Positions 1,416 to 41,728 of a DNA stretch of 64,000 nucleotides are shown one piece after another. The notes under the pieces are model-generated. The model was not told the DNA's origin. It worked only from the letters and a program-made list of their open reading frames with translations, and made no database searches. The stretch's first letter is position 1. The number at the start of each line of letters is the position of its first letter. Source of the DNA: an uncultured delta proteobacterium (lineage in GTDB: Bacteria; Desulfobacterota; Syntrophorhabdia; Syntrophorhabdales; WCHB1-27); NCBI GenBank assembly GCA_963768735.1, contig CAVYJH010000014.1, forward strand, positions 22,233 through 86,232, read 5' to 3'. Made by a program: the position numbers and the translations under genes.

Positions 1416-1888
1416 AGAGATATAGGATGTTATCCGTGACAAATATAGAAGAGATGTATTTTACCACAAGTTGCTGCGAGAAGTCTTAATGCCGACGAAT
1501 GCCACTCGTAATCTCCATTATTTTGAAAGGCGTACAGGTTAATGAGTTAAGGAAGAAGCCTGCCCGGCGTGAAATGCCGATCGTCGATGAAGATTTCACT
1601 CTCTGCGATCGTACCAACAAGCGGCGCAATAAAGAGAGCGTCCCCACACGCCCGCACCCCCTGGAATGCGCCGTCCTTGCGAGAAAAATCTACCATTCCA
1701 CAGGGGGTGAATCCATGAAAAAAAGCCTGTTTTCTCTGCAATATAGGGGATTTTTTCACAGCTTCGGACGTGAAGATTACGCTCACCGCGAGAACACCTA
1801 CGAGTCCTTGCGCACGGCCTTACCAGACGAGTAAAGAGCGCCGCCCGTAAGCCAGGCGAAGTTTTTTCAAAACCTGAACGTTTTTTTC

Positions 1889-1916
1889 TTGACATCTGTG
1901 TGATGCATAGTATAAC
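1889..1916 (+). promoter_or_regulatory. sigma70-like promoter of PEP-CTERM gene 2178-2843
   Basis: TTGACA (1889-1894), 16-nt spacer, TATAAC (1911-1916). The same architecture precedes the three other surface-protein genes. Confidence 0.5.
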
Positions 1917-1933
1917 ATAACATAACAATCAGA

Positions 1934-1968
1934 AAAGCCAAACCATCCGCGAGGGTGGGACGGAAAGC
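1934..1968 (+). promoter_or_regulatory. Conserved 5' leader element, copy 1 of 4 (GNRA-capped hairpin flanked by AAAGCC repeats)
   Basis: AAAGCCAAACCATCCGCGAGGGTGGGACGGAAAGC. The stem is CCATCC/GGGTGG (1943-1948/1953-1958) with loop GCGA. It starts about 18 nt after the -10 box. Confidence 0.6.
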
Positions 1969-2177
1969 TTGAGGGTCTCAGTTTAATTCATCACGGAACA
2001 TGCATCAGTGAGACAGCCGGGCTGCCTGAAAAGAAACTTACAGGAGGTTGCTTATGGCAAAAACTGTGGCAGCGCCCGCTCGGTAAAGCATCGTACACAG
2101 CACGTGCGGGTTTATCGTTTATGATAGACAAGAAGTCGAAGATGGTTGAAGGTAACAAATCCCAGAGGAGGTACTGT

Positions 2178-3419: not shown

Positions 3420-4937
3420 TCAGCTTGTGTTCTGATACAGGGCAGCCTGGGCCTTGGCGGTATTGGACGTGAGAAGAATTTGGAGAAACTCTAGTGGATT
3501 TCTTCCCTGCCTGAGTGCGGTAAGTACAAGGCTGGGCAGGATACTATGCGTTCTTAGTCCGCTTATGGATCGAGTGCCGAACATGATTTTCCGAAAGATC
3601 ACCAGAAAGCGGATCGACTGCTCCGCTTGATTGTTTGTCGGCTGCACCCCGGGGTAGCGAAGAAAGGTGAAGAAGTTCTTGCGATCCTTGATGAGGGAGA
3701 CTCGCAAGGCTTCGGCAGGCTTGTAACCGAGCGGGTCTTTACAGAGCTTTTTGAGTTCCGAGACGAGCCGCTTTTCAATACGGGGCGCCTGCTTCCACGT
3801 CCTTGCGCCGGAGAGAAGTTCCCGCCCCAGCGCACAGGCTTTCGAGAAGACCGCGGCGATGCCGGCGCAAAAGGCTTCTGCTTTTCTGTCGCGGTCCTTT
3901 ATGAGCAGAAGCTCTCGGGTGATTTCCTTGGCCTGAGTGATAAGATGGCTCAGACAGGCTTGCCGCGCCTTGGCATGCGCACCGTTATAGGCGGCGTAGC
4001 GATCGGTGACCAGGATGCCCTCAAAGCTCGATCCCAGGATAGATTGGGCCACTTCCGTCGATCGGTGGCGGTCGATGTGGAAGAGCGCCAGATCAGGATT
4101 CCCCGCGTACCACGCATAATGGCCTATGCCGTCATTTCGCCACGAGGTCTCATCGGCATGGATGACGGCCGATGCCTTGATTTTCTCTCGCAGGTCTTCA
4201 TAAATAGCCGCCCCTTTTTGCGCTGCCAGCCGGTCGAACCCCAATGCGGAGGCGCACACAAATTCCAGGCCGAACAACGCCCTGAAGACCTCAGTGACTT
4301 TTCTGTAAGGCATCCCTATCCGATACCGTAAATATATGGCGACGGACTTCGCCACCGGCCCGATAGGGGCATTAAGAAGCTCATCCTCTCCCCCTTGAAC
4401 CACCGACCGGCGACAATGGCCGCAGTATGCCTCTTCGTGCACATACCTCGTAATGATCGTCCGGGGACGAAGCAGAATGTCTTCCTGGAGATGCTCGCTG
4501 ACTTGCCCTGTGGGCAGAAGGCTATCGGATCCGCAATGAGGACATATCGAAGGGGCGGGAAGGTGAACGGTTCTGTCCACACGCGCAGGCTTGGGTCTGG
4601 ACCATCCGGGATGGCCAGTAGGAGCGCCTCGCTTCTTCCTTGTTCCGGCAGGGCTGCCGCTTTCTGAAGGAGGTTTGTTTGCCTTGAACTGTCTGCGATG
4701 GAGCGCGGTATTCTTCGCTTTCAGTTCCGCATTCTCTTTCTCCAGAATCCGGACCTGTTTCATGACTGCGTTCAACCGGGCGTCCAGTACATCGATAATG
4801 CGAAGATGTTCGTCGTACACCTCATCGGCACGCCGGTATCCTTCAAAAACCCACGTGGTGGACAGTCCATCCAGATGCGGACAATGATCCGTATAAGGGC
4901 AGCTAAAGCCATACGGTGGATACGCGGGACGAGGCAC
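3420..4937 (-). CDS. IS66-family transposase
   Basis: 505 aa with an N-terminal coiled-coil/leucine-zipper region (RILEKENAELKAKNTALHRRQF), a Zn-finger-like CPHCG...CGHC, and a DDE region with HADETSW, typical of the IS66 TnpC type. Confidence 0.9.
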   Translation of the reverse strand: MPRPAYPPYGFSCPYTDHCPHLDGLSTTWVFEGYRRADEVYDEHLRIIDVLDARLNAVMKQVRILEKENAELKAKNTALHRRQFKANKPPSESGSPAGTRKKRGAPTGHPGWSRPKPARVDRTVHLPAPSICPHCGSDSLLPTGQVSEHLQEDILLRPRTIITRYVHEEAYCGHCRRSVVQGGEDELLNAPIGPVAKSVAIYLRYRIGMPYRKVTEVFRALFGLEFVCASALGFDRLAAQKGAAIYEDLREKIKASAVIHADETSWRNDGIGHYAWYAGNPDLALFHIDRHRSTEVAQSILGSSFEGILVTDRYAAYNGAHAKARQACLSHLITQAKEITRELLLIKDRDRKAEAFCAGIAAVFSKACALGRELLSGARTWKQAPRIEKRLVSELKKLCKDPLGYKPAEALRVSLIKDRKNFFTFLRYPGVQPTNNQAEQSIRFLVIFRKIMFGTRSISGLRTHSILPSLVLTALRQGRNPLEFLQILLTSNTAKAQAALYQNTS

Positions 4938-10308: not shown

Positions 10309-11700
10309 TTACCACCCGCTCCACGTCACCCCCTGGCCGACGTTGAGCCAGTAACCCGCACCTGGACAGAACTGGCTGAGGGTGCTTGAGAGGTTTGTCG
10401 GGTCGTAAAACTGCCAGCCCTGGGAGGGATAGCCCCAGGAGACCTGAAGGGCGCTGCCAAGAGAGAAGAGGGCCGTCGAGGCGGGGGCGCACGATGTCCC
10501 GTTGTAGCCCACGAGGTTCCATCCGGAAGTAAGGGTAAGAGACGAAGATGGCGCAGTGCCCGAGAGGTCGAGTGTTTTTGCAGAGGTCATCTTTATCCAG
10601 TAGCCCATTCCTGCCTGCATGGTCGTAAGGGTGCTTCCTGCCGCGTCGTTGGGATCGTAGACCTGCCAGGTTTGGTTGGGATAGGCCCAGACCACCTCAT
10701 AGGCGCCCTTGACGCCCGAAAGCACGGAGGCAATGGAGGTGTTGGCAGGCTGCACTGGCAGAGAGACAAGGTTCCAGCCGATGGAGAGCGCAGGCGTGGG
10801 GATCGCCAAGAAGCCATGCTCCACACCGTTCGCGTCATAGTATTGCCCAACGATCGTGCCGCCGTCATTAATGTCATAGGCAAAGGTGGAGGAGGCGCCT
10901 GGGTAATTCAAGGGGGTGTAAGTCGTACCGCTCAAGGAAAAGCCGTGAGATGCACCGCTCGCGTCCTTGTAATGCCCAACGATCGTGCCGCCTTTATTTA
11001 TGGCGGCTGCTGCGGTTGCTGAAGCGCCTGGGTAATTCAAGGGGGTGTAAGTCGTACCGCTCAAGGAAAAGCCATGAAGCGCACCGCTCGCGTCATAGTA
11101 CTCCCCGACAATCGTGCCCCCGGTATTAATGCCATAGGCTTGGGTGGATGAAGCGCCTGGGTAATTCACGGGGGTGTACGTCGTACCGCTCAGGGAAAAG
11201 CCATGGGGCGGACTGTCCTCACTATACGTGTCCCAGTAATCGCCCACAATTACGCCTCCGTCATTAATATGAATGGCCTCTGAAGGATGACCTGGATAAT
11301 TCAGGGAGGTATAGGTCGTACCGCTCAGGGAAAACCCATTATCCACACTGCTACCGTGTCCGTTCCAGTACTCCCCGACAATCGTGCCTCCGCTATTAAT
11401 GCCATTAGCCCAAGTGTATTGAGCGCCGGGGTAAGAAAAAGAGGTATAGGTCCCACCGCTCAGGGAAAAGCCGTGATTATACCCACTCGCGTCCGCGTAT
11501 GTGCCGACAATCGTGCCCCCATTATTTATGGCGTTCGCGGAGGTTGCTGAATTAGGGGCGCCGGCATAGACTGGTGAACCACCGGGGTAATCGACGGTGG
11601 TAAAGGAGTAGTTGGCGGCGTAGGCGTCACTCAACGCGCCGAGGGTAAGAACGAGGGCGATCAGCACTGTTGAACCCTTTTTCACTGAATGCCTCCTCAT
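10309..11700 (-). CDS. Secreted repeat protein (about six or seven ~46-aa HAF-like repeats plus a duplicated C-terminal GWNLV...GYW module)
   Basis: Signal peptide MRRHSVKKGSTVLIALVLTLGALSDAYA. Repeats HGFSLSGTTYTPLNYPGASST.AYGIN.GGTIVG.YYDASG. No PEP-CTERM tail. Confidence 0.7.
   Translation of the reverse strand: MRRHSVKKGSTVLIALVLTLGALSDAYAANYSFTTVDYPGGSPVYAGAPNSATSANAINNGGTIVGTYADASGYNHGFSLSGGTYTSFSYPGAQYTWANGINSGGTIVGEYWNGHGSSVDNGFSLSGTTYTSLNYPGHPSEAIHINDGGVIVGDYWDTYSEDSPPHGFSLSGTTYTPVNYPGASSTQAYGINTGGTIVGEYYDASGALHGFSLSGTTYTPLNYPGASATAAAAINKGGTIVGHYKDASGASHGFSLSGTTYTPLNYPGASSTFAYDINDGGTIVGQYYDANGVEHGFLAIPTPALSIGWNLVSLPVQPANTSIASVLSGVKGAYEVVWAYPNQTWQVYDPNDAAGSTLTTMQAGMGYWIKMTSAKTLDLSGTAPSSSLTLTSGWNLVGYNGTSCAPASTALFSLGSALQVSWGYPSQGWQFYDPTNLSSTLSQFCPGAGYWLNVGQGVTWSGW
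10800..11613 (-). repeat. Intragenic tandem repeats (~130-140 bp units) of the HAF-like repeat gene
   Basis: Near-identical DNA stretches such as GCGCCTGGGTAATTCAAGGGGGTGTAAGTCGTACCGCTCAAGGAAAAGCC recur at about 10897, 11027 and 11155. Confidence 0.7.
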
Positions 11701-11771
11701 GCAAGAAGTTATATCCGGCAGCTCGGCGGTCTTTGCTGATGACCGCCAGAGGCGGCCAACTGGGAGCCGTC

Positions 11772-11807
11772 GGCTTTCCGCACCACCCTCACGGATGGTT
11801 TGGCTTT
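11772..11807 (-). promoter_or_regulatory. Conserved 5' leader element, copy 2 of 4
   Basis: Gene-sense AAAGCCAAACCATCCGTGAGGGTGGTGCGGAAAGCC. The stem is CCATCC/GGGTGG with loop GTGA. Confidence 0.6.
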
Positions 11808-11825
11808 ATCAGATTATGCCCTCAT

Positions 11826-11852
11826 ATTATACTACATATCACTAAGTTTCAA
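11826..11852 (-). promoter_or_regulatory. sigma70-like promoter of the HAF-like repeat gene
   Basis: Gene-sense TTGAAA-N15-TATAAT. A second -35-like TTGCAC sits 14 nt further upstream (local duplication). Confidence 0.45.
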
Positions 11853-12125
11853 GAAGACATGTGCAAGAAAATGTACAGGTTCTGAAAAAATAAATTCCTC
11901 TCTCTTTTACGCGGTACTCTTCACTCGCCTGAGAAGCCCGCGTGCGGGGGTTTTTGGCGCAGGCCGCAGATTAACATTCCTTGCTCTTGGAACATAGAAA
12001 GCACAGGGGCTTATCCATGGGTGCGGGCAACCCTGTAAAAAAGTCAGCGGGGTCCTCACCTCTGGGCACAATGAAGAGGCCCCGCATGGCGCTTGTGCGG
12101 GGCCTCAGACTAGAAAATCCGTTGT

Positions 12126-18382: not shown

Positions 18383-18985
18383 TTACCCCTGGACTCTTTT
18401 CCTGATCCCGAAGAGGCCGAGCAGGCCCGGGGCAAGAAGGAGTGCTGAGGGCGGGACGGGGACGCTGGTCACGTCAAGGCTGACGGCACTTTTGCCGGAT
18501 ACTGGATACGCCTGGGTCTGGTCAACAGACAGGGACCCCGCATAAGGGCCGGTGACGGTAAACTGCGAATTGGAGAGCCCCGAAAGGTCGGAGAACTGGA
18601 TAACCCAGCCGTAGTAGTGGATGGGGCCGCCGGTAGTTTCGAAGTTGGAGACCGTCCCGGTGGCGGTGAAGGATGGGTAGCCGGAGATATCTCCCGTAAA
18701 TGTGGCTGCGCCTGAGGTATTGTTCAATACTATTGTTCCCCCAAGGATCTGCACTGCGTTGCCGATCTGATTTCCCGAGCCATCGTTCCCCAACAAGCTC
18801 CAACTGTTATTTCTTTCGGTGATGGTATATACATTATTACTGGGACCGCTGATGGCGGTTGTCGAGCCACCTGACACGATTGTCTCGGAGGCTGCCATGG
18901 GCATCGCCTTCGCCACTCCCGGTGCGCCTACCAACAGGCCGATTGCCAAAACAAGACCGATTGCACACAAACTAATCTTTTTCAC
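18383..18985 (-). CDS. PEP-CTERM sorting-domain secreted protein
   Basis: GTG start preceded by AAGGAGGA. Signal peptide MKKISLCAIGLVLAIGLLVGAPGVAKA. C-terminus VPVPPSALLLAPGLLGLFGIRKRVQG. Confidence 0.8.
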   Translation of the reverse strand: MKKISLCAIGLVLAIGLLVGAPGVAKAMPMAASETIVSGGSTTAISGPSNNVYTITERNNSWSLLGNDGSGNQIGNAVQILGGTIVLNNTSGAATFTGDISGYPSFTATGTVSNFETTGGPIHYYGWVIQFSDLSGLSNSQFTVTGPYAGSLSVDQTQAYPVSGKSAVSLDVTSVPVPPSALLLAPGLLGLFGIRKRVQG

Positions 18986-19132
18986 GTATCCTCCTTGTAC
19001 TATTCAGATTTGACTGCCGGAAAATGAACTGCCGCGTGACGTTTTTCACCTCCTTCCCTCCGCGTAAGAAAGGTTATTGGCAGCCCGGCCGTCTTTCTGA
19101 ATGGTTCACAAGGTGCATACCAGAGACCCGAT

Positions 19133-19168
19133 GGCTTTCCGCCCCACCGTCGCCGATGGTTTGGCTTT
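19133..19168 (-). promoter_or_regulatory. Conserved 5' leader element, copy 3 of 4 (carries a compensatory stem change)
   Basis: Gene-sense AAAGCCAAACCATCGGCGACGGTGGGGCGGAAAGCC. The stem is CCATCG/CGGTGG with loop GCGA. Confidence 0.6.
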
Positions 19169-19180
19169 ATCAACTGAGAG

Positions 19181-19209
19181 AGTATACTATGGTCATTACA
19201 CATTGTCAA
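19181..19209 (-). promoter_or_regulatory. sigma70-like promoter of PEP-CTERM gene 18383-18985
   Basis: Gene-sense TTGACA-N17-TATACT, preceded by an A-rich tract. Confidence 0.5.
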
Positions 19210-21046: not shown

Positions 21047-22285
21047 CAGGGCAAGCGCATTTGAAAACTATCTAACTAATAGAAATTTCTAGACATTTGA
21101 TGATATATATGCTATCTACCTGAAACTATTAACGTTATTAGGTGGAGGGCATGCATGGATAAAGGGAACTCGATCAGTGACTTCTTTTCGGACCTCACCG
21201 AACCTCGGGACTCAAATAAGAGACACAAGCTCATCGACATTATTACCATAGCCCTGTGCGCGGTGATCTGCGGCGCCGATACGTGGGAAGATATAGAGGA
21301 GTTCGGTGATACCAAAAGGGAGTGGTTTGAGCGGTTTCTCGAATTACCTCACGGCATTCCCGGTCACGATACTTTTGCCAGGGTCTTTGCGAGCATGAAC
21401 CCCAAAGAGTTCCAGCAGGCCTTTCTCAGATGGGTAGAAGCTGTGCAGACAGTGACGAAGCGGATTGTCGCCATAGATGGAAAGACGCTGCGTCGCTCAT
21501 ACGAGAAGAACAAATCCCCAATTCACCTGGTCAGCGCCTGGGCCGTGGAGAACAAGATGGTCTTGGGACAGGTCAAGACCAGGGAGAAGTCGAACGAGAT
21601 TACCGCTATCCCGGAACTGCTTTCGGTCCTGGAGCTGGGAGGGTGCATAGTGACTATTGACGCCATGGGGTGCCAGAAGGAAATCGTCAAGACGATTATC
21701 GGCAAGGGCGCAGACTATGTGCTTGGCCTGAAGGGGAACCAGGGAGCGCTCCATGACGACGTGAAGCTCTACTTCGAGGATTGTCTGGCATCAGGGTTCA
21801 AGGACATCGAATACGATTACCACGAAACCATCGATGGCGACCATGGGAGGATTGAGACAAGACGGTACTGGACCACCTCCGATATCGACTGGCTGCCGGA
21901 CAGGGCGCTCTGGAAAAACCTCTCATCCATCGTCATGGTGCAGAGGGAACGGTATGTAAACGGCACAACAAGCATGGAGGCGAGCTATTATGTGACAAGC
22001 CTCAAGAGCGATGCCGAACATGTTGCTCGGGCAGTGCGGGGCCACTGGGGCATCGAGAACAGCCTTCACTGGGTGCTCGACATCGCCTTCCGGGAAGACG
22101 AATCACGGATACGGAAGGACAACGCCCCTGCCAATTTCGCTATCATACGACATATGGCGCTCAATCTCTTGAGAAAAGAAACCTCCCTCAGAAGGAGCAT
22201 AAAGACAAAAAGGCTTAAGGCCGGATGGGATACAGACTACCTTGCCAGGATACTCAGGGGGTAGTTTTCAAATGCGCTTGCCCTG
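21047..22285 (+). mobile_element. ISAs1-family insertion sequence
   Basis: 24-bp perfect terminal inverted repeats CAGGGCAAGCGCATTTGAAAACTA (21047-21070 / 22262-22285), flanked by the 10-bp direct repeat GGGGAGAGGG (21037-21046 / 22286-22295). Confidence 0.85.
21155..22264 (+). CDS. ISAs1-family transposase (H-repeat-associated protein type)
   Basis: FSDLTEPRDSNKRHKLIDIITIALCAVICGADTWEDIEEFG...IDAMGCQKEI...HWGIENSLHWVLDIAFREDESR, the typical ISAs1/DDE_Tnp_1-associated signature. Confidence 0.9.
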   Translation: MDKGNSISDFFSDLTEPRDSNKRHKLIDIITIALCAVICGADTWEDIEEFGDTKREWFERFLELPHGIPGHDTFARVFASMNPKEFQQAFLRWVEAVQTVTKRIVAIDGKTLRRSYEKNKSPIHLVSAWAVENKMVLGQVKTREKSNEITAIPELLSVLELGGCIVTIDAMGCQKEIVKTIIGKGADYVLGLKGNQGALHDDVKLYFEDCLASGFKDIEYDYHETIDGDHGRIETRRYWTTSDIDWLPDRALWKNLSSIVMVQRERYVNGTTSMEASYYVTSLKSDAEHVARAVRGHWGIENSLHWVLDIAFREDESRIRKDNAPANFAIIRHMALNLLRKETSLRRSIKTKRLKAGWDTDYLARILRG

Positions 22286-22470: not shown

Positions 22471-23061
22471 CTACTTCTTGAACCGTTTCCTGATTACAGC
22501 AAGACCCGCCAGCCCGGGACCGAAAAGGAGCATGGCGGACGGGAGCGGAACCGCGGGGAAACCCGTGACTGTATAAGAAATGACCTCGGGCGACGAGCCG
22601 ATAGGCGACGTATTGTTGAAGGCAAGGAGGAGCGAATTCCCGGTCGGTACGACCACCTGAAAACTGTAAGTCTCACCAGGAGTGTTCGGGCTCATCCCTG
22701 GATCGCCCAGGTAGTTATGAGAGAGATTGTTCACGTCAAAGCTGTTCAGATAGGCCACTACGAAGGGAGCAGCCTGCACGCCGGAGACAAGGTTGTAGCT
22801 AATCTCCACGTCTTCCAGGGATCCCGGGGTAAAACTCACGGTCCTGAAATAGGTGGGGGACTGAGGCAGGGTCCCTGGAAAGGGCTTGGGGGAGGCCCAG
22901 GTGCTGGCAATTCCATTACGATCAACCCGGACACTGCCTACGAGCGACTCGGTACCGTCCAGGGTAACCGTACCCGAACCGATCGGGGCGGACCACACCG
23001 GAGAGACAGCCGGCAGAACCAGCGCAAAACCGAAGAGCAGAGCACAGATCAACCTTCTCAT
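22471..23061 (-). CDS. PEP-CTERM sorting-domain secreted protein
   Basis: Signal peptide MRRLICALLFGFALVLPAVSPVWSA. C-terminus VPLPSAMLLFGPGLAGLAVIRKRFKK. AGGAGGA lies upstream of the ATG. Confidence 0.8.
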   Translation of the reverse strand: MRRLICALLFGFALVLPAVSPVWSAPIGSGTVTLDGTESLVGSVRVDRNGIASTWASPKPFPGTLPQSPTYFRTVSFTPGSLEDVEISYNLVSGVQAAPFVVAYLNSFDVNNLSHNYLGDPGMSPNTPGETYSFQVVVPTGNSLLLAFNNTSPIGSSPEVISYTVTGFPAVPLPSAMLLFGPGLAGLAVIRKRFKK

Positions 23062-23149
23062 TGCATATCCTCCTGTTTTGAAAGATTATACTCTGGGAGC
23101 CAGGCTGTCTTCGGGGCCCCTTACGGACCCGATTAACGCAAGACCCTTC

Positions 23150-23185
23150 GGCTTTCCGTCCCACCCTCGCGGATGGTTTGGCTTT
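23150..23185 (-). promoter_or_regulatory. Conserved 5' leader element, copy 4 of 4
   Basis: Gene-sense AAAGCCAAACCATCCGCGAGGGTGGGACGGAAAGCC. Its hairpin and flanks are identical to those of copy 1. Confidence 0.6.
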
Positions 23186-23203
23186 CGCAGATTGTTTGAG
23201 TAT

Positions 23204-23230
23204 GTTATACCGTGAAGCACAAGATGTCAA
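23204..23230 (-). promoter_or_regulatory. sigma70-like promoter of PEP-CTERM gene 22471-23061
   Basis: Gene-sense TTGACA-N15-TATAAC. Confidence 0.5.
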
Positions 23231-23424
23231 GAAAAACTGTACAGGTTTCAAAAGATTCCTCTCGCTTTCCCATAATATTCTTCACTCGCCAGAGCAGCCA
23301 GTATGCGTGGACTCGTAGGTGCTTGTGCTTACCTGCCTGCCCTTTGTGTTCCAGGGGCCTTTTTCAGAAACAATCGGGGAGAACGGCTTAGGATAGTGGC
23401 TCTCCCAATTCGCCTCTTACCCAT

Positions 23425-28474: not shown

Positions 28475-31400
28475 GTGATACGGAGAATCGTAGATTTTGC
28501 GCTGAATAGGCGCCTCCTGGTGATAGCATTTGCCCTTTTGCTCTTTGGCTGTGGCATTATGGCCTTCCGTCATCTCCCTGTCGAGGCATATCCGGACGTC
28601 GCGAATAACTATGCCTGGGTCATCACGCAGTGGCCGGGAAGGGCCGCCGAGGAGGTGGAGCAGCAGGCGACCATCCCCCTTGAGACCGCGCTGAACGGTA
28701 TTCCCCAGCTCTCCCATCTGCGGTCGGTATCCCTTGCCGGCCTGTCCGTTGTCATACTCATTTTCGACGACAACTCGGATAACGCATGGAACCGGCAGAA
28801 GGTACTCGAACGATTATCCATGGTTACCCTTCCAGGCAACCTGCAGCCCAACATCGGCCCCGACTTCAGCCCCGTGGGCCAAATATACTTTTACACTTTG
28901 AGGAGCACCAATCCACGATACGACGCCATTGACCTGAAGTCCCTGCAGGATTGGGTGCTCGTAAAGCAGTTCAAGACGGTGCCGAACGTGATCGACGTGT
29001 CGAGCTTCGGCGGCCCCACGCGGGAATACCAGGTGCGCGTCGACCCAGATAAGCTCGTTTCCTACGGGTTAAGCATCGGCCAGGTGGAGCAGCAGCTCGC
29101 CAACAACAACGTGAACGCGGGCGGCAGCTTTATCGAGGCGGGTACCCAGCAGATCAACGTGCGCGCCCTCGGATTGATCCGCAATAGTCGGGATATCGAG
29201 GAGACGGTCATCACCGCAAAGAACGGCACGCCGGTACGGGTCAAGGACATCGCCACGGTGTCGCAGGGTCCGAAGATACGCTTGGGCCAGTTCGGCAGGG
29301 CCATTCATCGCACCGACGGGAAAATCATCGACAACGAAGACGTCGTCTCCGGCATCGTCCTCATGCGCAAAGGGGCCGATTTCGATGCGACCCTCGAGGG
29401 GGTCCACAAGAAGGTGGAAGAGCTGAACGACCACATCCTGCCCCCGGGCGTGAAAGTGGTCCCCTTCAACGACCGGAGCGACCTCGTTTACCATACGACG
29501 CACACGGTCCTCCGTAACCTCACGGAAGGGCTCATCCTCGTGACGATCGTGCTCTCTTTTTTCTCGGGAATATCAGGGGCGCCCTGATCGTGGCGCTCAC
29601 CATCCCCTTTTCGCTCCTCTTCGCATCGATCTGTCTCGACCTGAGGAAGATACCGGCGAACCTGCTCTCCCTGGGCGCCCTCGACTTCGGCATGGTTGTC
29701 GACGGGACCGTCGTGATGGTGGAGAACATCATCCGCCACCTGGGTCACAGGGACCCGGCCTCATCCGTGAAAGACAGGATCAGGGCCGCTTCCCATGAGG
29801 TGCAGAGGCCGGTCTTCTACGCCATTGCCATCATCATCAGCGGCTACTTGCCTATCTTTACCCTCCAGCGCGTGGAAGGACGCCTGTTCAAGCCCATGGC
29901 CTGGACCGTGGGGTTCGCGCTGCTGGGCGCCATGATTTTCTCCATGACCATCGCCCCGGTCCTCGTCAGTTTCTTATTCAAGAAAGAAACACCCGAGTGG
30001 CACAATCCCGTGGTTGTCTGGCTTACGAAAAAGTACCGGAAGGGTCTGACCTGGTCTATTCATCACCGCATGGTGATGGTCGGGGTCGCTGTCCTCGCTC
30101 TGGGCGGCAGTATCTGCCTTGCAATGAGCGGCGCCATCGGGTCGGAGTTCCTGCCCCATCTTGATGAGGGGGCAATCTGGGTGCGCGGCACCCTTGCGCC
30201 GAGTACCGGGCCGAGCGAGGGCATCAGGGTCGCGAACCAGGCCCGGATCGTGCTCGCCTCGTTCCCCGAGGTGACGATGGCAACCAGCCAGGTAGGACGA
30301 CCCGATGACGGGTTGGACACCACAGGATTTTTCAACACCGAATACTGTGTGCCCCTCAAGCCCAGGGGCCAATGGCGTCCGGTTTTCCACCAGGACAAGG
30401 AGGAGTTGATCACTGCCATGAGCAGGGAGCTCAGGAAGATCCCCGGCGTGATCTGGAACTTTTCCCAACCCATTCAGGACAACATGGAAGAGGCGGTGAG
30501 CGGGGTCAAGGGGCAGCTCGCGACGAAGATCTACGGCGAGGACTTGAAGGTACTGGAAGCCAAAGGCGAAGAGATAGTCCGGGTGATGCGGCACATCAAC
30601 GGGATCAAGGACCTTGGACTCTTCCGCGTCATCGGCCAGCCGAACCTGAACTTCGAGGTGGACCGCACCAAGGCCGCCCGCTACCAGATCAACGTGGCCG
30701 ACGTGCAGGATGCCGTGCAGACGGCCGTGGGCGGCAATGCCCTCACCCAGGTGCTGCAGGGCGAGCAGCGCTACGACCTGGTCATGCGCTACCTTCCTCG
30801 CTTCCGGGATACGAAGGAGGCCCTCGAAAGGGTGCGTCTCCTCAGCCCTTCCCTCGAAAGGGTGTCCCTCGCGCAGCTCTGCAAGGTGCAGACGCGGGAC
30901 GGCGCCGCGGAGATCTATCGTGAGGGGAACAAGCGCTACGTGGCGATAAAGTTCAGCGTCCGGGGCCGCGACCTCGGGAGTGCGGTCAAGGAAGCGATGA
31001 CAAAGGTAGAAAAACGGGTGAAGCTGCCGCCCGGATATTATATCGATTGGTCGGGCGAGTACGAAAGCCAGCAGCGGGCCGCGGCCCGGCTGGCCGTCAT
31101 CGTGCCGCTGACGATCTTCCTCATCTTCCTGATCATCTACTTTGCCTTCGGCTCCGCCAAGTGGGCCTGTCTCAATCTGGTCACGGTAGCCATGGCGCCA
31201 ATCGGGGGACTGCTTGCGCTGCTCGTGACGGGCACGTATTTCAGCGTTTCCTCGGGGGTGGGATTCTTGGCCCTCTTCGGGGTCTCCGTGCAGACCGGCG
31301 TGGTGATGGTCGTCTATATCAATCAACTGCGCGCAAGAGGTTACTCGGTTGTCGATGCCGCCATCGAGGGGGCAACCCGACGCTTGAGGCCCATTATGAT

Positions 31401-31650
31401 GACCATGCTCGTGGCAACCCTCGGTCTTCTGCCGGCGGCCATGTCCCATGCCATCGGCTCGGATTCGCAGCGTCCCTTCGCCATCGTCATTGTAGGCGGT
31501 CTAATAACCGACCTGGTGTTGAGCATTTTTTTGCTGCCCACTTTCTACGTGTGGTGGGCCAGGCCCACAGACCAACTGCCGGCGGGTGACGAGTCGAAGA
31601 GTATCGATGCCGGAGACGAGATCAGCGAGGGCGTAAATGGTGACGGTTAA
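28475..31650 (+). CDS. czcA: CzcA/CusA-family heavy-metal RND transporter, copy 1, with an apparent -1 frameshift in a T-run (29557-29562)
   Basis: Track ORFs 28475-29587 and 29590-31650 are the two halves of one ~1056-aa protein. Adding one T restores ...VLSFFLGNIRGALIVALTIPFSLLF, matching copy 2. Confidence 0.85.
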
Positions 31651-38800: not shown

Positions 38801-40258
38801 ATGAACAGGAAAGCACTTTTCACGACTGCCCCGGCGATACCGGCCCTTCTCCATTTCCAAGGCGTTTTTACCGCCACCGCCCGGTCCGTGGGACTGCTTC
38901 TCAAGACGGCATCCTTTTTCCTGGCCCTGGTCATGCTTCTTCTCGTCTCGGTCGGCCCCGTGTATCCGGCCGACGACGGCACGGCCGAAACGAGGCCCGC
39001 CTGGCTCCCCCAGTTCCTGGGGCTCCAGTTCAGCGGCAACTACCAGAACACGCCCGGTTTCCACAGCCCCTATGAAGGCGAGAAAAGCTTTACCTTCGAT
39101 CATAGCTTCAAGCAGGAGACGACCCAGACTTACGGCCTCTATCTGGGCTCGCAAGTGACGAAGTCTTTGCAGCTCTATGCAGACTTCGAGATGTTCCGGG
39201 GGGCGGGACTCTCAGGTGGCCTGGGCATCGGGGCCTATACCAACGCGGACGTCATCAGGGCCGGGCCCGCCAACCTTGGGCAGAGCCCCTACCTTGCGCG
39301 TCTGTATGCGCGCTACCTCATCCCCCTGTCGGGAGAGGTGGGTGGGACCCTGACCCGTGCCATGGATCAACTCCCCGGCGTCGAGCCCGTCCATCGCATC
39401 GAGATAAAGGCGGGCAGGCTGGCCCCCACCGATGATTTCGACCAGAACCGCTATGCCAATAACGGCAGGACCCAGTTCCTCAACTACGCCTTCCTCTTCA
39501 ATACGGCCTGGGATTACGCCTCCGATACGAGGGGCTACAGCATAGGGGCCTCCGTTGCCTTTGTCCACCCCGCATGGCGGTTGATCATGGGGAGCTACCA
39601 AGTGCCGGATACAAGAAACGGCATAAACCTCGACGACGAGATCTACCATGCCCGGGGGGACAACATCGAGCTGGACCTCGCGCCGGGTAGGCTTGGCACG
39701 GTCATTCGTCTCCTAGCCTTTCACAACGAAGGGCGCATGGGCGACTACCGGGAGGCCATGGCCATAGGCAGCGCCGCCGGCACCGTACCGAGCACCTTGG
39801 CCGACGAGCAGCCGGGACGCACCAAGTACGGCTTTGGCCTCAACATCGAGCAGCCCCTCGCAAATAACGGCGAGACCGGCCTCTTCGCGCGCCTCGGCTG
39901 GGCAAACGGCGCCAATTCCGCCTGGTCCTATACGGAAGTGGACCGCGACGCCAGCATGGGCTTGCAAGTGAGCGGGCGCAACTGGGGACGTCCGGAAGAC
40001 AATTTCGGCATCGGCATTGCGGCAGGCGGGCTTTCAGGCCCGCACAGGCATTACCTTGAAGAAGGGGGCATAGGCATGCTCATAGGCGACGGGGCGCTCA
40101 ATTACGGGCCGGAGGAGATATTCGAGACCTATTACCGCATCCAGCTTGGCCGATACGCGCAGCTCAGCCCCGATTTCCAGTACATAGAGAACCCCGGGTA
40201 CAACAAGGACAGGGGTCCGGTGAAGGTCTACGGCATGCGGCTGCGCATGAGCTATTGA
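38801..40258 (+). CDS. OprB-family (carbohydrate-selective-type) outer-membrane porin
   Basis: Signal/TM-like N-terminus. OprB-like blocks (QFLNYAFLFNTAWDY, EEIFETYYRIQLGRYAQLSPDFQYIENPGYNKDRGPV). Terminal aromatic residue ...MRLRMSY. Confidence 0.7.
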   Translation: MNRKALFTTAPAIPALLHFQGVFTATARSVGLLLKTASFFLALVMLLLVSVGPVYPADDGTAETRPAWLPQFLGLQFSGNYQNTPGFHSPYEGEKSFTFDHSFKQETTQTYGLYLGSQVTKSLQLYADFEMFRGAGLSGGLGIGAYTNADVIRAGPANLGQSPYLARLYARYLIPLSGEVGGTLTRAMDQLPGVEPVHRIEIKAGRLAPTDDFDQNRYANNGRTQFLNYAFLFNTAWDYASDTRGYSIGASVAFVHPAWRLIMGSYQVPDTRNGINLDDEIYHARGDNIELDLAPGRLGTVIRLLAFHNEGRMGDYREAMAIGSAAGTVPSTLADEQPGRTKYGFGLNIEQPLANNGETGLFARLGWANGANSAWSYTEVDRDASMGLQVSGRNWGRPEDNFGIGIAAGGLSGPHRHYLEEGGIGMLIGDGALNYGPEEIFETYYRIQLGRYAQLSPDFQYIENPGYNKDRGPVKVYGMRLRMSY

Positions 40259-40318: not shown

Positions 40319-41728
40319 GTGACGGAAAATACCGAAAAGAGGCGGGTGACCCTCCTCTCCCTGGCCACCACCGTGGGTCTCATCATTCTTAAGGTGGCCG
40401 TGGGGCTGAAGACAGGATACCTCACCCTTATCACGGAGGCGATCCACTCGACCCTCGATGCCCTGGTCACGGTTATCACGTTTTTCTCCGTCCGGTACGC
40501 CGAGCGGCCCGCCGACAGCGACCACCCTTATGGGCACGAGAAGGCGGAGAACCTCGCAGCCTTCACCGAATGTATACTCCTCTTCGTCGCCCTCGGCCTT
40601 ATCGTGAACCAGGTGGTCAGGCGTCTCTTCTTCGAGGCGCCCCAACTGGCGGCCAGCCTTTGGCCGGTAATCGTGCTCGTCATATCGATGATTTTCGACC
40701 TGAACCGGGCACATGCCCTGAGAAAGGTTGCGCGGGCCTACAGGAGCCCCGCCATCGAGGCGGATGCAGTACATTTCAGCGCCGACCTGATGACCTCAGG
40801 GATCGCGCTCTGCGGCATGGGCCTCGCCTATGTGTTTTCGAACGTCATCAATTCCGCCTCCTGGTTCATCGACATCGCCACCACGGGTGTGATTCTCCTT
40901 GCCGTCGCCCGTATGGCCCTCGGCATTCTCCTGCGCTCCTCGCAGGTCCTCCTCGATAGAACGGCCCCTGAGCAGCGGGAGCTCATACGCGGGGTGGTTT
41001 CCCGGATCCCGGACGTGATCGGGGTGGAGGCCATCCGTACGAGAGAAGCGGGCAAGAAGACTTTCGTCGACCTGACCCTTGCCGTCGACCGCAACCTCAC
41101 GGTCGAATCGAGCTGCCGCATACAGCAATCTGCAGAAGCAGCAATAAAGCGGCACGTGGAGAATGCCGACGTGGTCCTCCAGCTCAGGCCGAAGGCGAAG
41201 GCAGCCGAGGATATCGCCGAGAGGGTGCGCGCCATCGGCGCCCGTCACGGCCACAACATTCATCACATTACCGTGCACGATATCGAGGGCGTGCTCCACG
41301 TGGACATGGACCTGGAAGTGGAAGGGGGGATGAAGCTCGGCGCCGCCCACGCGCTGGCCGATCTGCTCGAGACGCGGATCAGGCAGGACAATCCCCTGAT
41401 CAGCGCGGTCAACACCCACATCGAATGGCGGCCGCAGTCGCCTGTGGAAGGCAAGGTCGTCACCGAGCGGGATGCGCTGATCGGCATCATCGAAGGGATC
41501 GTCAGGGGGAAACAGGGGGTCCTCACCTGCGGACGGGTAGTGATCGAGGAGGAAGAATCCGGGGATATCGTGATCACCGTAAACTGCACCATGAGGCAGG
41601 ACGAGAAGGGGGCGGACGTGCAGAGGACCTCCGAGGAGATAGAGATGGCCCTCAGGGAGCGCATCAAGGAGTCGAGCCGTGTGGTCGTCCACGTCGAGCC
41701 CGAAAAGGCCGTGGGACCATCCGCGTGA
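40319..41728 (+). CDS. Cation diffusion facilitator (CDF) transporter with an extended, apparently triplicated cytoplasmic C-terminal domain
   Basis: GTG start. Six-TM CDF core (HSTLDALV, HPYGHEKAENL, DAVHFSADL). Three successive ~75-aa segments each fit the CDF C-terminal-domain pattern and end in a V..L.P/V.VHVEP-like strand. Confidence 0.7.
   Translation: MTENTEKRRVTLLSLATTVGLIILKVAVGLKTGYLTLITEAIHSTLDALVTVITFFSVRYAERPADSDHPYGHEKAENLAAFTECILLFVALGLIVNQVVRRLFFEAPQLAASLWPVIVLVISMIFDLNRAHALRKVARAYRSPAIEADAVHFSADLMTSGIALCGMGLAYVFSNVINSASWFIDIATTGVILLAVARMALGILLRSSQVLLDRTAPEQRELIRGVVSRIPDVIGVEAIRTREAGKKTFVDLTLAVDRNLTVESSCRIQQSAEAAIKRHVENADVVLQLRPKAKAAEDIAERVRAIGARHGHNIHHITVHDIEGVLHVDMDLEVEGGMKLGAAHALADLLETRIRQDNPLISAVNTHIEWRPQSPVEGKVVTERDALIGIIEGIVRGKQGVLTCGRVVIEEEESGDIVITVNCTMRQDEKGADVQRTSEEIEMALRERIKESSRVVVHVEPEKAVGPSA

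Follow-up and report, generated by a model that had tools for sequence, protein, structure and literature searches.

The GEMM motif was described in 2007 and identified as a c-di-GMP sensor in 2008 (PMC7266159). In the Vc2 riboswitch, G20 reads one guanine of c-di-GMP and C92 pairs with the other, while A47 makes a backbone contact to the ligand's 2'-hydroxyl group (PMC5888326; PMC6140456). The base at position 20 also separates ligands, A20 being the determinant of cGAMP recognition and G20 that of c-di-GMP: wild-type Vc2, which carries G20, binds cGAMP at about 10 uM only, compared with picomolar c-di-GMP (PMC6140456). The cGAMP-sensing GEMM-Ib riboswitches, which are common in Geobacter before genes for extracellular proteins, are turned c-di-GMP-selective by the exchange A20G (PMC6456294).

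Riboswitches that sense c-di-GMP have also been found in series before surface-protein genes. In Methylophaga nitratireducenticrescens GP59, four of them lie within about 18-20 kb, each by a PEP-CTERM/VPLPA-CTERM gene (PMC12530212). Transcripts of the riboswitches of this strain were higher in biofilm than in planktonic cells in 10 of 11 cases, including six of the seven c-di-GMP riboswitches; the exception, Ribo5, precedes a PEP-CTERM gene (PMC12530212).

Here we describe four leaders in a 64-kb stretch of DNA from an uncultured delta proteobacterium, hereafter the window. With a probability of about 0.9, we read them as c-di-GMP-I (GEMM-I) riboswitches, each of which would be transcribed from a sigma70-type promoter of its own and would carry its aptamer near the 5' end of the mRNA. 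The cassette that they share is a textbook c-di-GMP-I riboswitch in a gene context that has been reported before, and is in this sense already known.

Family membership and fold of the four leaders

According to the original prediction, four genes for secreted proteins share an upstream cassette in the same orientation relative to the gene. This can be read directly in all four leaders, each of which lies upstream of the gene for a signal-peptide protein. A pattern search with block 1 of the cassette (AAAGCCAAACCATCSGYGASGGTGGNNCGGAAAGC) had exactly four matches in the window, at 1934-1968 (+), 11773-11807 (-), 19134-19168 (-) and 23151-23185 (-), compared to none in 100 dinucleotide-preserving shuffles with up to two mismatches permitted; the number of copies was as predicted, whereas three of the positions originally given for them were off by 1 nt. 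Block 2 (AGACNGCCNNGCTNCC) also had exactly four matches in the window, where 0 are expected by chance, and all of them were found where they had been predicted (2011-2026, 11717-11732, 19079-19094 and 23095-23110).

A scan of the whole window with Rfam 15 at gathering thresholds yielded five matches. Four of these are the four leaders, matched at full length by models of the c-di-GMP-I riboswitch clan (CL00126) with E values from 1e-11 to 9e-5. Three were assigned to RF01051 (gathering score 35) over model positions 1-87 of 87: aptamer 1 (1927-2029, +) with 53.7 bits, aptamer 4 (23092-23192, -) with 51.5 bits and aptamer 2 (11713-11814, -; matched over 11714-11814) with 41.7 bits, the lowest of the four. 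Aptamer 3 (19075-19174, -) was assigned to RF03167 with 60.2 bits, which is 1.2 bits above the gathering score of 59, and is the only copy to reach it. One overlapping match of the same clan was suppressed at the gathering level, most simply read as that of RF01051 to copy 3. At a permissive Rfam threshold (E up to 1), no further or weaker copies were found in the window. The leaders had not been recognized as a named Rfam family, a view that these assignments overturn, as all four reach the gathering score of an already described family, RF01051 or RF03167, an outcome that the original prediction had itself listed as a refutation. The fifth match, in another part of the window, was to a cobalamin riboswitch.

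The two blocks correspond to defined parts of this fold. From its 5' end, block 1 consists of the junction AAAG, the 5' half of the closing helix (CC), AAA, hairpin 1 (CCAUCC-GNRA-GGGUGG), GAC or GGC, GG, AA, and AGCC, with which hairpin 2 begins. CC and GG form a helix of two base pairs, which closes the ligand pocket. Hairpin 2 continues from AGCC..GGGUCU through a variable insert to AGAC.GCC..GCU, so that block 2 provides its 3' strand (GAC, GCC..GCU), after which come two unpaired bases, G and C, and the first P1 base. All four leaders contain the predicted stem of 6 bp, which is hairpin 1 of the riboswitch; its loop is GCGA in three copies and GUGA in one. The predicted long-range helix is hairpin 2. 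The pairing GGCGGUC/GACCGCC proposed for leader 2 is doubtful: it rivals the canonical fold of the family, although it is the minimum free energy (MFE) solution for the single sequence.

The fold is closed by the P1 stem of 4-5 bp, which had been missed. It pairs positions 1929-1932 with 2026-2029 in aptamer 1 (+), 11814-11810 with 11717-11713 in aptamer 2 (-), 19174-19171 with 19079-19076 in aptamer 3 (-) and 23191-23188 with 23095-23092 in aptamer 4 (-). Its two strands covary among the four copies (UCAG/CUGA, AUCUG/CGGAU, GUUG/CAAU and UCUG/CAGA, respectively). Folding of the single sequence of aptamer 1 gives an MFE structure that contains P1, the closing pair and the two hairpins. In aptamer 2, two of the pairs at the base of hairpin 2 are non-standard, and the MFE structure is a competing alternative fold. 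None of the four single sequences has a significant folding energy (z between -0.4 and -2.75), so that the support for the structure is comparative only and not thermodynamic.

The four copies resemble RF01051 and Vc2 in their two-hairpin architecture with a GNRA loop on hairpin 1, the short P1, the contact nucleotides G, A and C, the junction AAAG-xC-AAACC...GACGx-AAAGC, the 3' strand GAC.GCC..GCU.GCC, and the location in the 5' UTR of genes for surface and environment functions. They differ from the RF01051 consensus in a closing helix of C-G/C-G instead of G-C/C-G, a GYGA instead of a GAAA tetraloop and an interior of hairpin 2 that is 20-30 nt longer; in leader 1, the junction is also one nucleotide shorter. 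In its core, the original prediction of a cis-regulatory, structured 5' RNA with its own promoter, a GNRA hairpin and another helix around a variable insert stands; its novelty does not, and P1 and the ligand-binding junction were missing from it.

Related aptamers, covariation and the upstream region

We searched a collection of species-representative genomes with a pattern for the aptamer core that includes the CC/GG closing helix, and the matches comprised at least 118 loci. Among the matches listed, most come from metagenome-assembled genomes (MAGs) of Thermodesulfobacteriota (deltaproteobacterial), with others from Nitrospirota, Methylococcales, Campylobacterota and further groups; the nearest cassettes among them are L020 and L022, from MAGs labelled 'uncultured delta proteobacterium'. 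A PEP-CTERM-like protein is encoded downstream of the aptamer in at least 10 other loci of diverse lineages, and many of the other proteins downstream of related aptamers have signal peptides. The element had been thought specific to the surface-protein family of the window, which is at odds with the at least 118 occurrences of this aptamer sub-type outside the source genome, with many kinds of genes downstream.

We used the four copies to build a covariance model, as the original prediction had proposed, and this model recovered 86 further aptamers in 79 of the at least 118 pattern loci, all in other genomes. The loop of hairpin 1 is of the GNRA type in 79 of the 79 related aptamers in which the regular expression could read it. 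The four window copies and the 86 further aptamers were combined into an alignment of 90 sequences, in which 93.7% of the cells form standard pairs, a value that is inflated for helices 2 and 3, as the alignment was fitted to the covariance model and its members were chosen by a pattern that fixes several positions. When the pairing partners were shifted by 1-3 columns as a control, 30-50% were paired. Both sides change in 17 of the 23 pairs, and none of 500 shuffles attained the values observed.

The original prediction had also placed sigma70-like promoters in front of the leaders, and hexamers close to consensus can indeed be read directly in the sequence upstream of all four: TTGACA (1889-1894) and TATAAC (1911-1916), separated by 16 nt, for leader 1 (1889-1916, +); TTGAAA (11852-11847) and TATAAT (11831-11826), separated by 15 nt, for leader 2 (11826-11852, -); TTGACA (19209-19204) and TATACT (19186-19181), separated by 17 nt, for leader 3 (19181-19209, -); and TTGACA (23230-23225) and TATAAC (23209-23204), separated by 15 nt, for leader 4 (23204-23230, -). 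The -35 hexamer of leader 1 is invariant in the alignment of the four leaders; a generic promoter scan at this leader found only a variant pairing, and the hexamers given above would presumably act as its promoter. In leader 2, an insertion of 11 nt relative to leaders 1 and 4 displaces the homologous hexamer, TTGCAC. The end of the -10 box precedes the first paired base, in P1, by 6-12 nt, so that the aptamer probably lies at the very 5' end of the mRNA.

In leaders 1, 2 and 4, sequence similarity continues upstream of the promoter for more than 100 nt, with a box, AACCTG[T/A]AC, directly upstream of the -35 hexamer and a second conserved stretch about 60-110 nt upstream, which in leader 1 is the end of a 39-codon ORF whose frame is inconsistent in the other copies. 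Because the similarity extends beyond the promoter, we consider these three units to be segmental paralogues. This raises the question of whether the cassette is merely a duplicated segment of DNA, a paralogous promoter region or DNA operator with no function at the RNA level. Such an explanation would account for the similarity upstream, yet we regard it as barely credible, given that paired positions covary, both in P1 of the four copies and in the 90 sequences, that the junction nucleotides are invariant whereas both the sequence and the length of the hairpin 2 interior vary, and that the aptamer region scores above threshold on curated structure models. We have therefore rejected, on the strength of the covariation, a DNA operator as the role of the aptamer region; a protein may bind to a box of its own upstream of the -35 hexamer.

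The box and the promoter are both present at L020, the closest aptamer among the matches listed, which comes from the MAG of another species, and most of the upstream stretch is present at L022. Neither the box nor the stretch was found in the more distant loci among the matches listed. This distribution suggests a lineage-specific regulatory module that is larger than the riboswitch, and the module may include a transcription-factor site upstream of the -35 hexamer besides the riboswitch itself.

Contact nucleotides and ligand

At the consensus columns equivalent to positions 20, 47 and 92 of Vc2, the Rfam alignments show G, A and C in each of the four copies. These are the unpaired G that precedes CC, the A that follows GG and, in the 3' GCC tail, the first C. 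The conversion of Rfam columns to Vc2 numbering, in part an inference, agrees with the difference at one position between the consensus sequences of RF01051 and RF03167. Because the three contact columns carry G, A and C in all four copies, the aptamers are predicted to sense c-di-GMP rather than cGAMP, and not to belong to the GGC variant.

The two alternatives set aside here deserve consideration in view of the host and of the Rfam scores. Riboswitches for cGAMP of the Geobacter type (GEMM-Ib, as in Gs1761 or Gmet_0970) share the fold with the window copies, occur in a related host group and also have genes for extracellular proteins downstream; the host lineage of the window is deltaproteobacterial (Thermodesulfobacteriota), as are L020 and L022, the nearest relatives among the matches listed. 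GEMM-Ib riboswitches, however, have A20 and act mostly by transcription anti-termination (ON), whereas all four window copies have G at the equivalent of position 20 and two of them lack room for a terminator. Given the effect of A20G and the poor binding of cGAMP by Vc2 with G20 (see above), we consider cGAMP-sensing highly unlikely.

The second group is the c-di-GMP-I-GGC variant (RF03167), or a sub-class with a flipped C-G pair, with a ligand preference of its own. The pair beside position 20 is C-G in the window copies, compared to G-C in the family consensus, and this flipped pair is common to the at least 118 loci. Copy 3 passes the gathering score of RF03167, the other copies obtain 47-56 bits with this model, and in three of the four copies it scores higher than RF01051; P1 is shared and the sequence of hairpin 2 is similar. 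The name 'GGC' probably refers to a G at position 47, as read off the two consensus sequences. At this place, directly after the closing pair, the RF03167 consensus has G, while all four window copies have A, like the canonical class (CGGAAA, compared to CGCGAA). The alignment of copy 3, the one assigned to RF03167, shows the same: the consensus reads ...ACGCGAAgCc where the window reads ...CGGAAAGCC, with A at that column. The contact triplet is thus the canonical one. A flipped Watson-Crick pair preserves the geometry of the helix, and we expect the exchange to be neutral. A different ligand preference is, on this evidence, very unlikely, and c-di-GMP remains the predicted ligand.

A broader version of the same idea takes in the upstream region. 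In flipped-pair aptamers, the scores for RF03167 and for the canonical model are about equal, and such aptamers occupy at least 118 loci, mostly in Thermodesulfobacteriota among the matches listed. They might represent a functionally distinct sub-class whose ligand preference or affinity range is shifted relative to canonical c-di-GMP-I riboswitches and which, in this lineage, would be embedded in a dual-input module, composed of the upstream box (AACCTGTAC), the promoter, the aptamer and the SD or uORF elements described below. We consider this very improbable; if true, a transcription-factor input and a nucleotide signal would jointly control the exosortase-substrate regulon.

Expression platforms and putatively regulated genes

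All four leaders have a strong SD sequence (AGGAGG or GGAGGG) 12-22 nt after the 3' strand of P1. In leaders 2 and 4, this SD belongs to the main gene. Gene 2 (10309-11685, -) has its likely start at GTG 11685, 23 nt after aptamer 2, with the SD GAGGAGG at 11698-11692. Gene 4 (22471-23061, -) has the SD AGGAGG at 23074-23069, and its ATG follows 25 nt after the covariance-model match and 30 nt after the 3' strand of P1 (23092). As the start codons are only 23 and 25 nt away from the aptamer, there is no room for an intrinsic terminator in these two leaders, where control is most likely exerted at translation initiation.

Leaders 1 and 3 continue for about 100-120 nt beyond the aptamer-proximal SD and start codon, which here would belong to a short upstream ORF. 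In leader 1, the SD (AGGAGG, 2042-2047) is followed by a putative uORF of 10 codons from ATG 2054 to TAA 2086 (MAKTVAAPAR*; together 2042-2086, +), which in the alignment occupies the position of the real start codon in leaders 2 and 4. In leader 3, the SD (GGAGGG, 19061-19056) precedes a putative uORF of 25 codons from GTG 19049 to TAG 18972 (together 18972-19061, -), which overlaps the start codon of the main gene. The only candidate for an intrinsic terminator in the four leaders is a weak one in leader 1 (2076-2121, +), a stem CCCGC...GCGGG followed by the U-rich UUUAUCGUUUAU. It matches the consensus poorly, and the terminator scan returned one site here compared to a mean of 2.0 in shuffles, fewer than by chance, for which reason we treat it as tentative. 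Coupling through the uORF or termination may also be involved in leaders 1 and 3.

In our reading, binding of c-di-GMP would lock P1 and the junction and thereby alter access to the SD, so that the production of secreted surface or matrix proteins, probably sorted by an exosortase, would depend on c-di-GMP. We lean slightly towards an ON response, since PEP-CTERM proteins are associated with matrix or flocs and the Methylophaga riboswitch transcripts are higher in biofilm.

The same riboswitch could also act in the opposite direction. In this case, c-di-GMP would release a pyrimidine-rich, CUUUCUU-like anti-SD segment, which would mask the SD and repress translation. An OFF mechanism through an anti-RBS has been proposed for Vc2. 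Partition-function modelling of the window leaders provides some basis for it: with the aptamer forced, the first SD of all four leaders is predicted to be paired with the pyrimidine-rich segment that follows P1; in leader 4, the SD lies in a predicted local hairpin with AUCUUUC. Upon inspection, CUUUC could be bound by the aptamer-core segment GGAAAG in leaders 3 and 4 as long as these are in the free state. The complementarity is, however, inconsistent, as leaders 1 and 2 have no such GGAAAG/CUUUC match and the anti-SD of the relative L020 is weak. Moreover, the SD hairpin is predicted in the unconstrained ensemble as well, so that the SD appears masked by a local hairpin in both, and the comparison of forced-aptamer and unconstrained ensembles revealed no anti-SD/anti-anti-SD scheme common to all four leaders. 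Matrix and surface proteins would also be expected to rise with c-di-GMP, and the riboswitch transcripts of Methylophaga were higher in biofilm in 10 of 11 cases (PMC12530212). We give the OFF response somewhat less than even odds and the ON response a slight preference.

Three of the four downstream genes had been labelled PEP-CTERM genes: gene 1 (2178-2843, +; 221 residues), gene 3 (18383-18985, -; 200 residues) and gene 4 (196 residues). All three products are secreted and have a PEP-CTERM-like tail, in which VPAPP, VPVPP or VPLPS is followed by a hydrophobic stretch and a basic cluster, RKR or KRR (VPAPPGLLLLASGVLGLTGLKRRFKR in gene 1). The label agrees with this motif architecture; all matches to PEP-CTERM models of Pfam and NCBIfam remain below the curated cut-offs (PF07589 17 bits, cut-off 20.7; NCBIfam models 17-24 bits, cut-offs 65-100); the match of gene 4 to PF07589 has an E value of 0.006 and is sub-threshold. 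Gene 1 further matches DUF7901 (PF25470) with 25.2 bits, just over its cut-off. The product of gene 2 is a secreted HAF-repeat protein, as originally recognized (TIGR02913, 57 bits), without a PEP-CTERM-like tail.

The arrangement is the same as in GP59, in that several c-di-GMP-I riboswitches each lie directly upstream of a single PEP-CTERM-type gene (PMC12530212). GP59 belongs to the Gammaproteobacteria, a different phylum-level lineage from that of the window, and its riboswitches are surrounded by exopolysaccharide genes, whereas the neighbours in the window are IS66 and IS4-type transposases, an ExeA/ExeB-like pair, a methyltransferase, haem-synthesis enzymes and two-component systems, the latter with histidine kinases and a LuxR-type response regulator, as well as RND efflux components. 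Of the 20 window ORFs scanned, none was an exosortase or EPS gene.

The riboswitches of the window represent neither a new RNA class nor a new mechanism. They are one more case of the published link between c-di-GMP riboswitches and genes for exosortase substrates, and allow the four secreted proteins, three of them PEP-CTERM-like and one with HAF repeats, to be annotated as predicted members of a c-di-GMP regulon.

Conserved sequences upstream of the promoters

Leaders 1, 2 and 4 of the four c-di-GMP-I (GEMM-I) riboswitch leaders carry a box, AACCTG[T/A]AC followed by a T-run, directly 5′ of the −35 element (1871-1879 (+), 11881-11873 (−) and 23247-23239 (−), respectively). The same box occurs in the closest relative, a locus from the MAG of another species (L020, about 3292-3284 (−)); neither leader 3 nor the distant related loci have it. 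It is a candidate transcription-factor site or UP element, which could work jointly with the riboswitch.

Further upstream, 60-110 nt 5′ of the promoters, lies a second conserved stretch, CCTACGAGTCC ... GGC..GAGTGAAGA. It is found at 1715-1834 (+) in leader 1, 11920-12030 (−) in leader 2 and 23283-23400 (−) in leader 4, as well as at about 3880-3925 in L022, the other nearest related locus. In leader 1 the stretch makes up the 3′-terminal part of a putative 39-codon ORF, which is preceded by a Shine-Dalgarno sequence (MKKSLFSLQYRGFFHSFGREDYAHRENTYESLRTALPDE); in leaders 2 and 4 and in L022 it ends in ..G[F/C]SGE, with differing reading frames.

Differences between the leaders

Putative short uORFs with good Shine-Dalgarno sequences are present in leader 1 (2054-2086 (+)) and leader 3 (19049-18972 (−)), at the position which the true start codon occupies in leaders 2 and 4. 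The uORF of leader 3 ends 12 nt within the main ORF, so that translational coupling is possible; alternatively, both uORFs may be remnants of earlier gene starts.

In aptamer 2 (11713-11814 (−)), two of the pairs that form the base of the second hairpin are non-standard, and the aptamer's predicted minimum-energy fold contains an alternative helix, GGCGGUC/GACCGCC. Further, its variable loop includes CCUCU, which is complementary to the Shine-Dalgarno sequence. Aptamer 2 may be a weakened copy or may switch differently.

Other genes and a cobalamin riboswitch in the window

ORFs for an IS66-family transposase (3420-4937 (−)) and an IS4-type (DDE_Tnp_1) transposase (21155-22264 (+)) are intermingled with the riboswitch-controlled genes. 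The coding sequence of an AcrB-type RND pump falls into two adjoining ORFs (28475-29587 and 29590-31650 (+)), which cover Pfam profile positions 1-351 and 362-1019, respectively; this split could stem from a frameshift, an in-frame stop or a sequencing error, or could mark a pseudogene.

The window also holds a cobalamin riboswitch (RF00174, 38385-38578 (+), 113 bits, E 1.4e-27). The two ORFs 3′ of it, an OprB-family porin (38801-40258) and then a cation-diffusion facilitator (Cation_efflux/ZT_dimer, 40319-41728), include no obvious BtuB or cobalamin-synthesis gene.

Aptamer clustering in related loci

In covariance-model searches, several related loci of other genomes had two GEMM-I aptamers, separated by between a few hundred nt and a few kb: L022 (7690-7811), L064 (1923-2006 and 2219-2301), L048 (5882-5968 and 6375-6461), L051 (5129-5218 and 6497-6579), L068 and L079. 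This recurrence of paired aptamers indicates that riboswitch clustering is common in these lineages.
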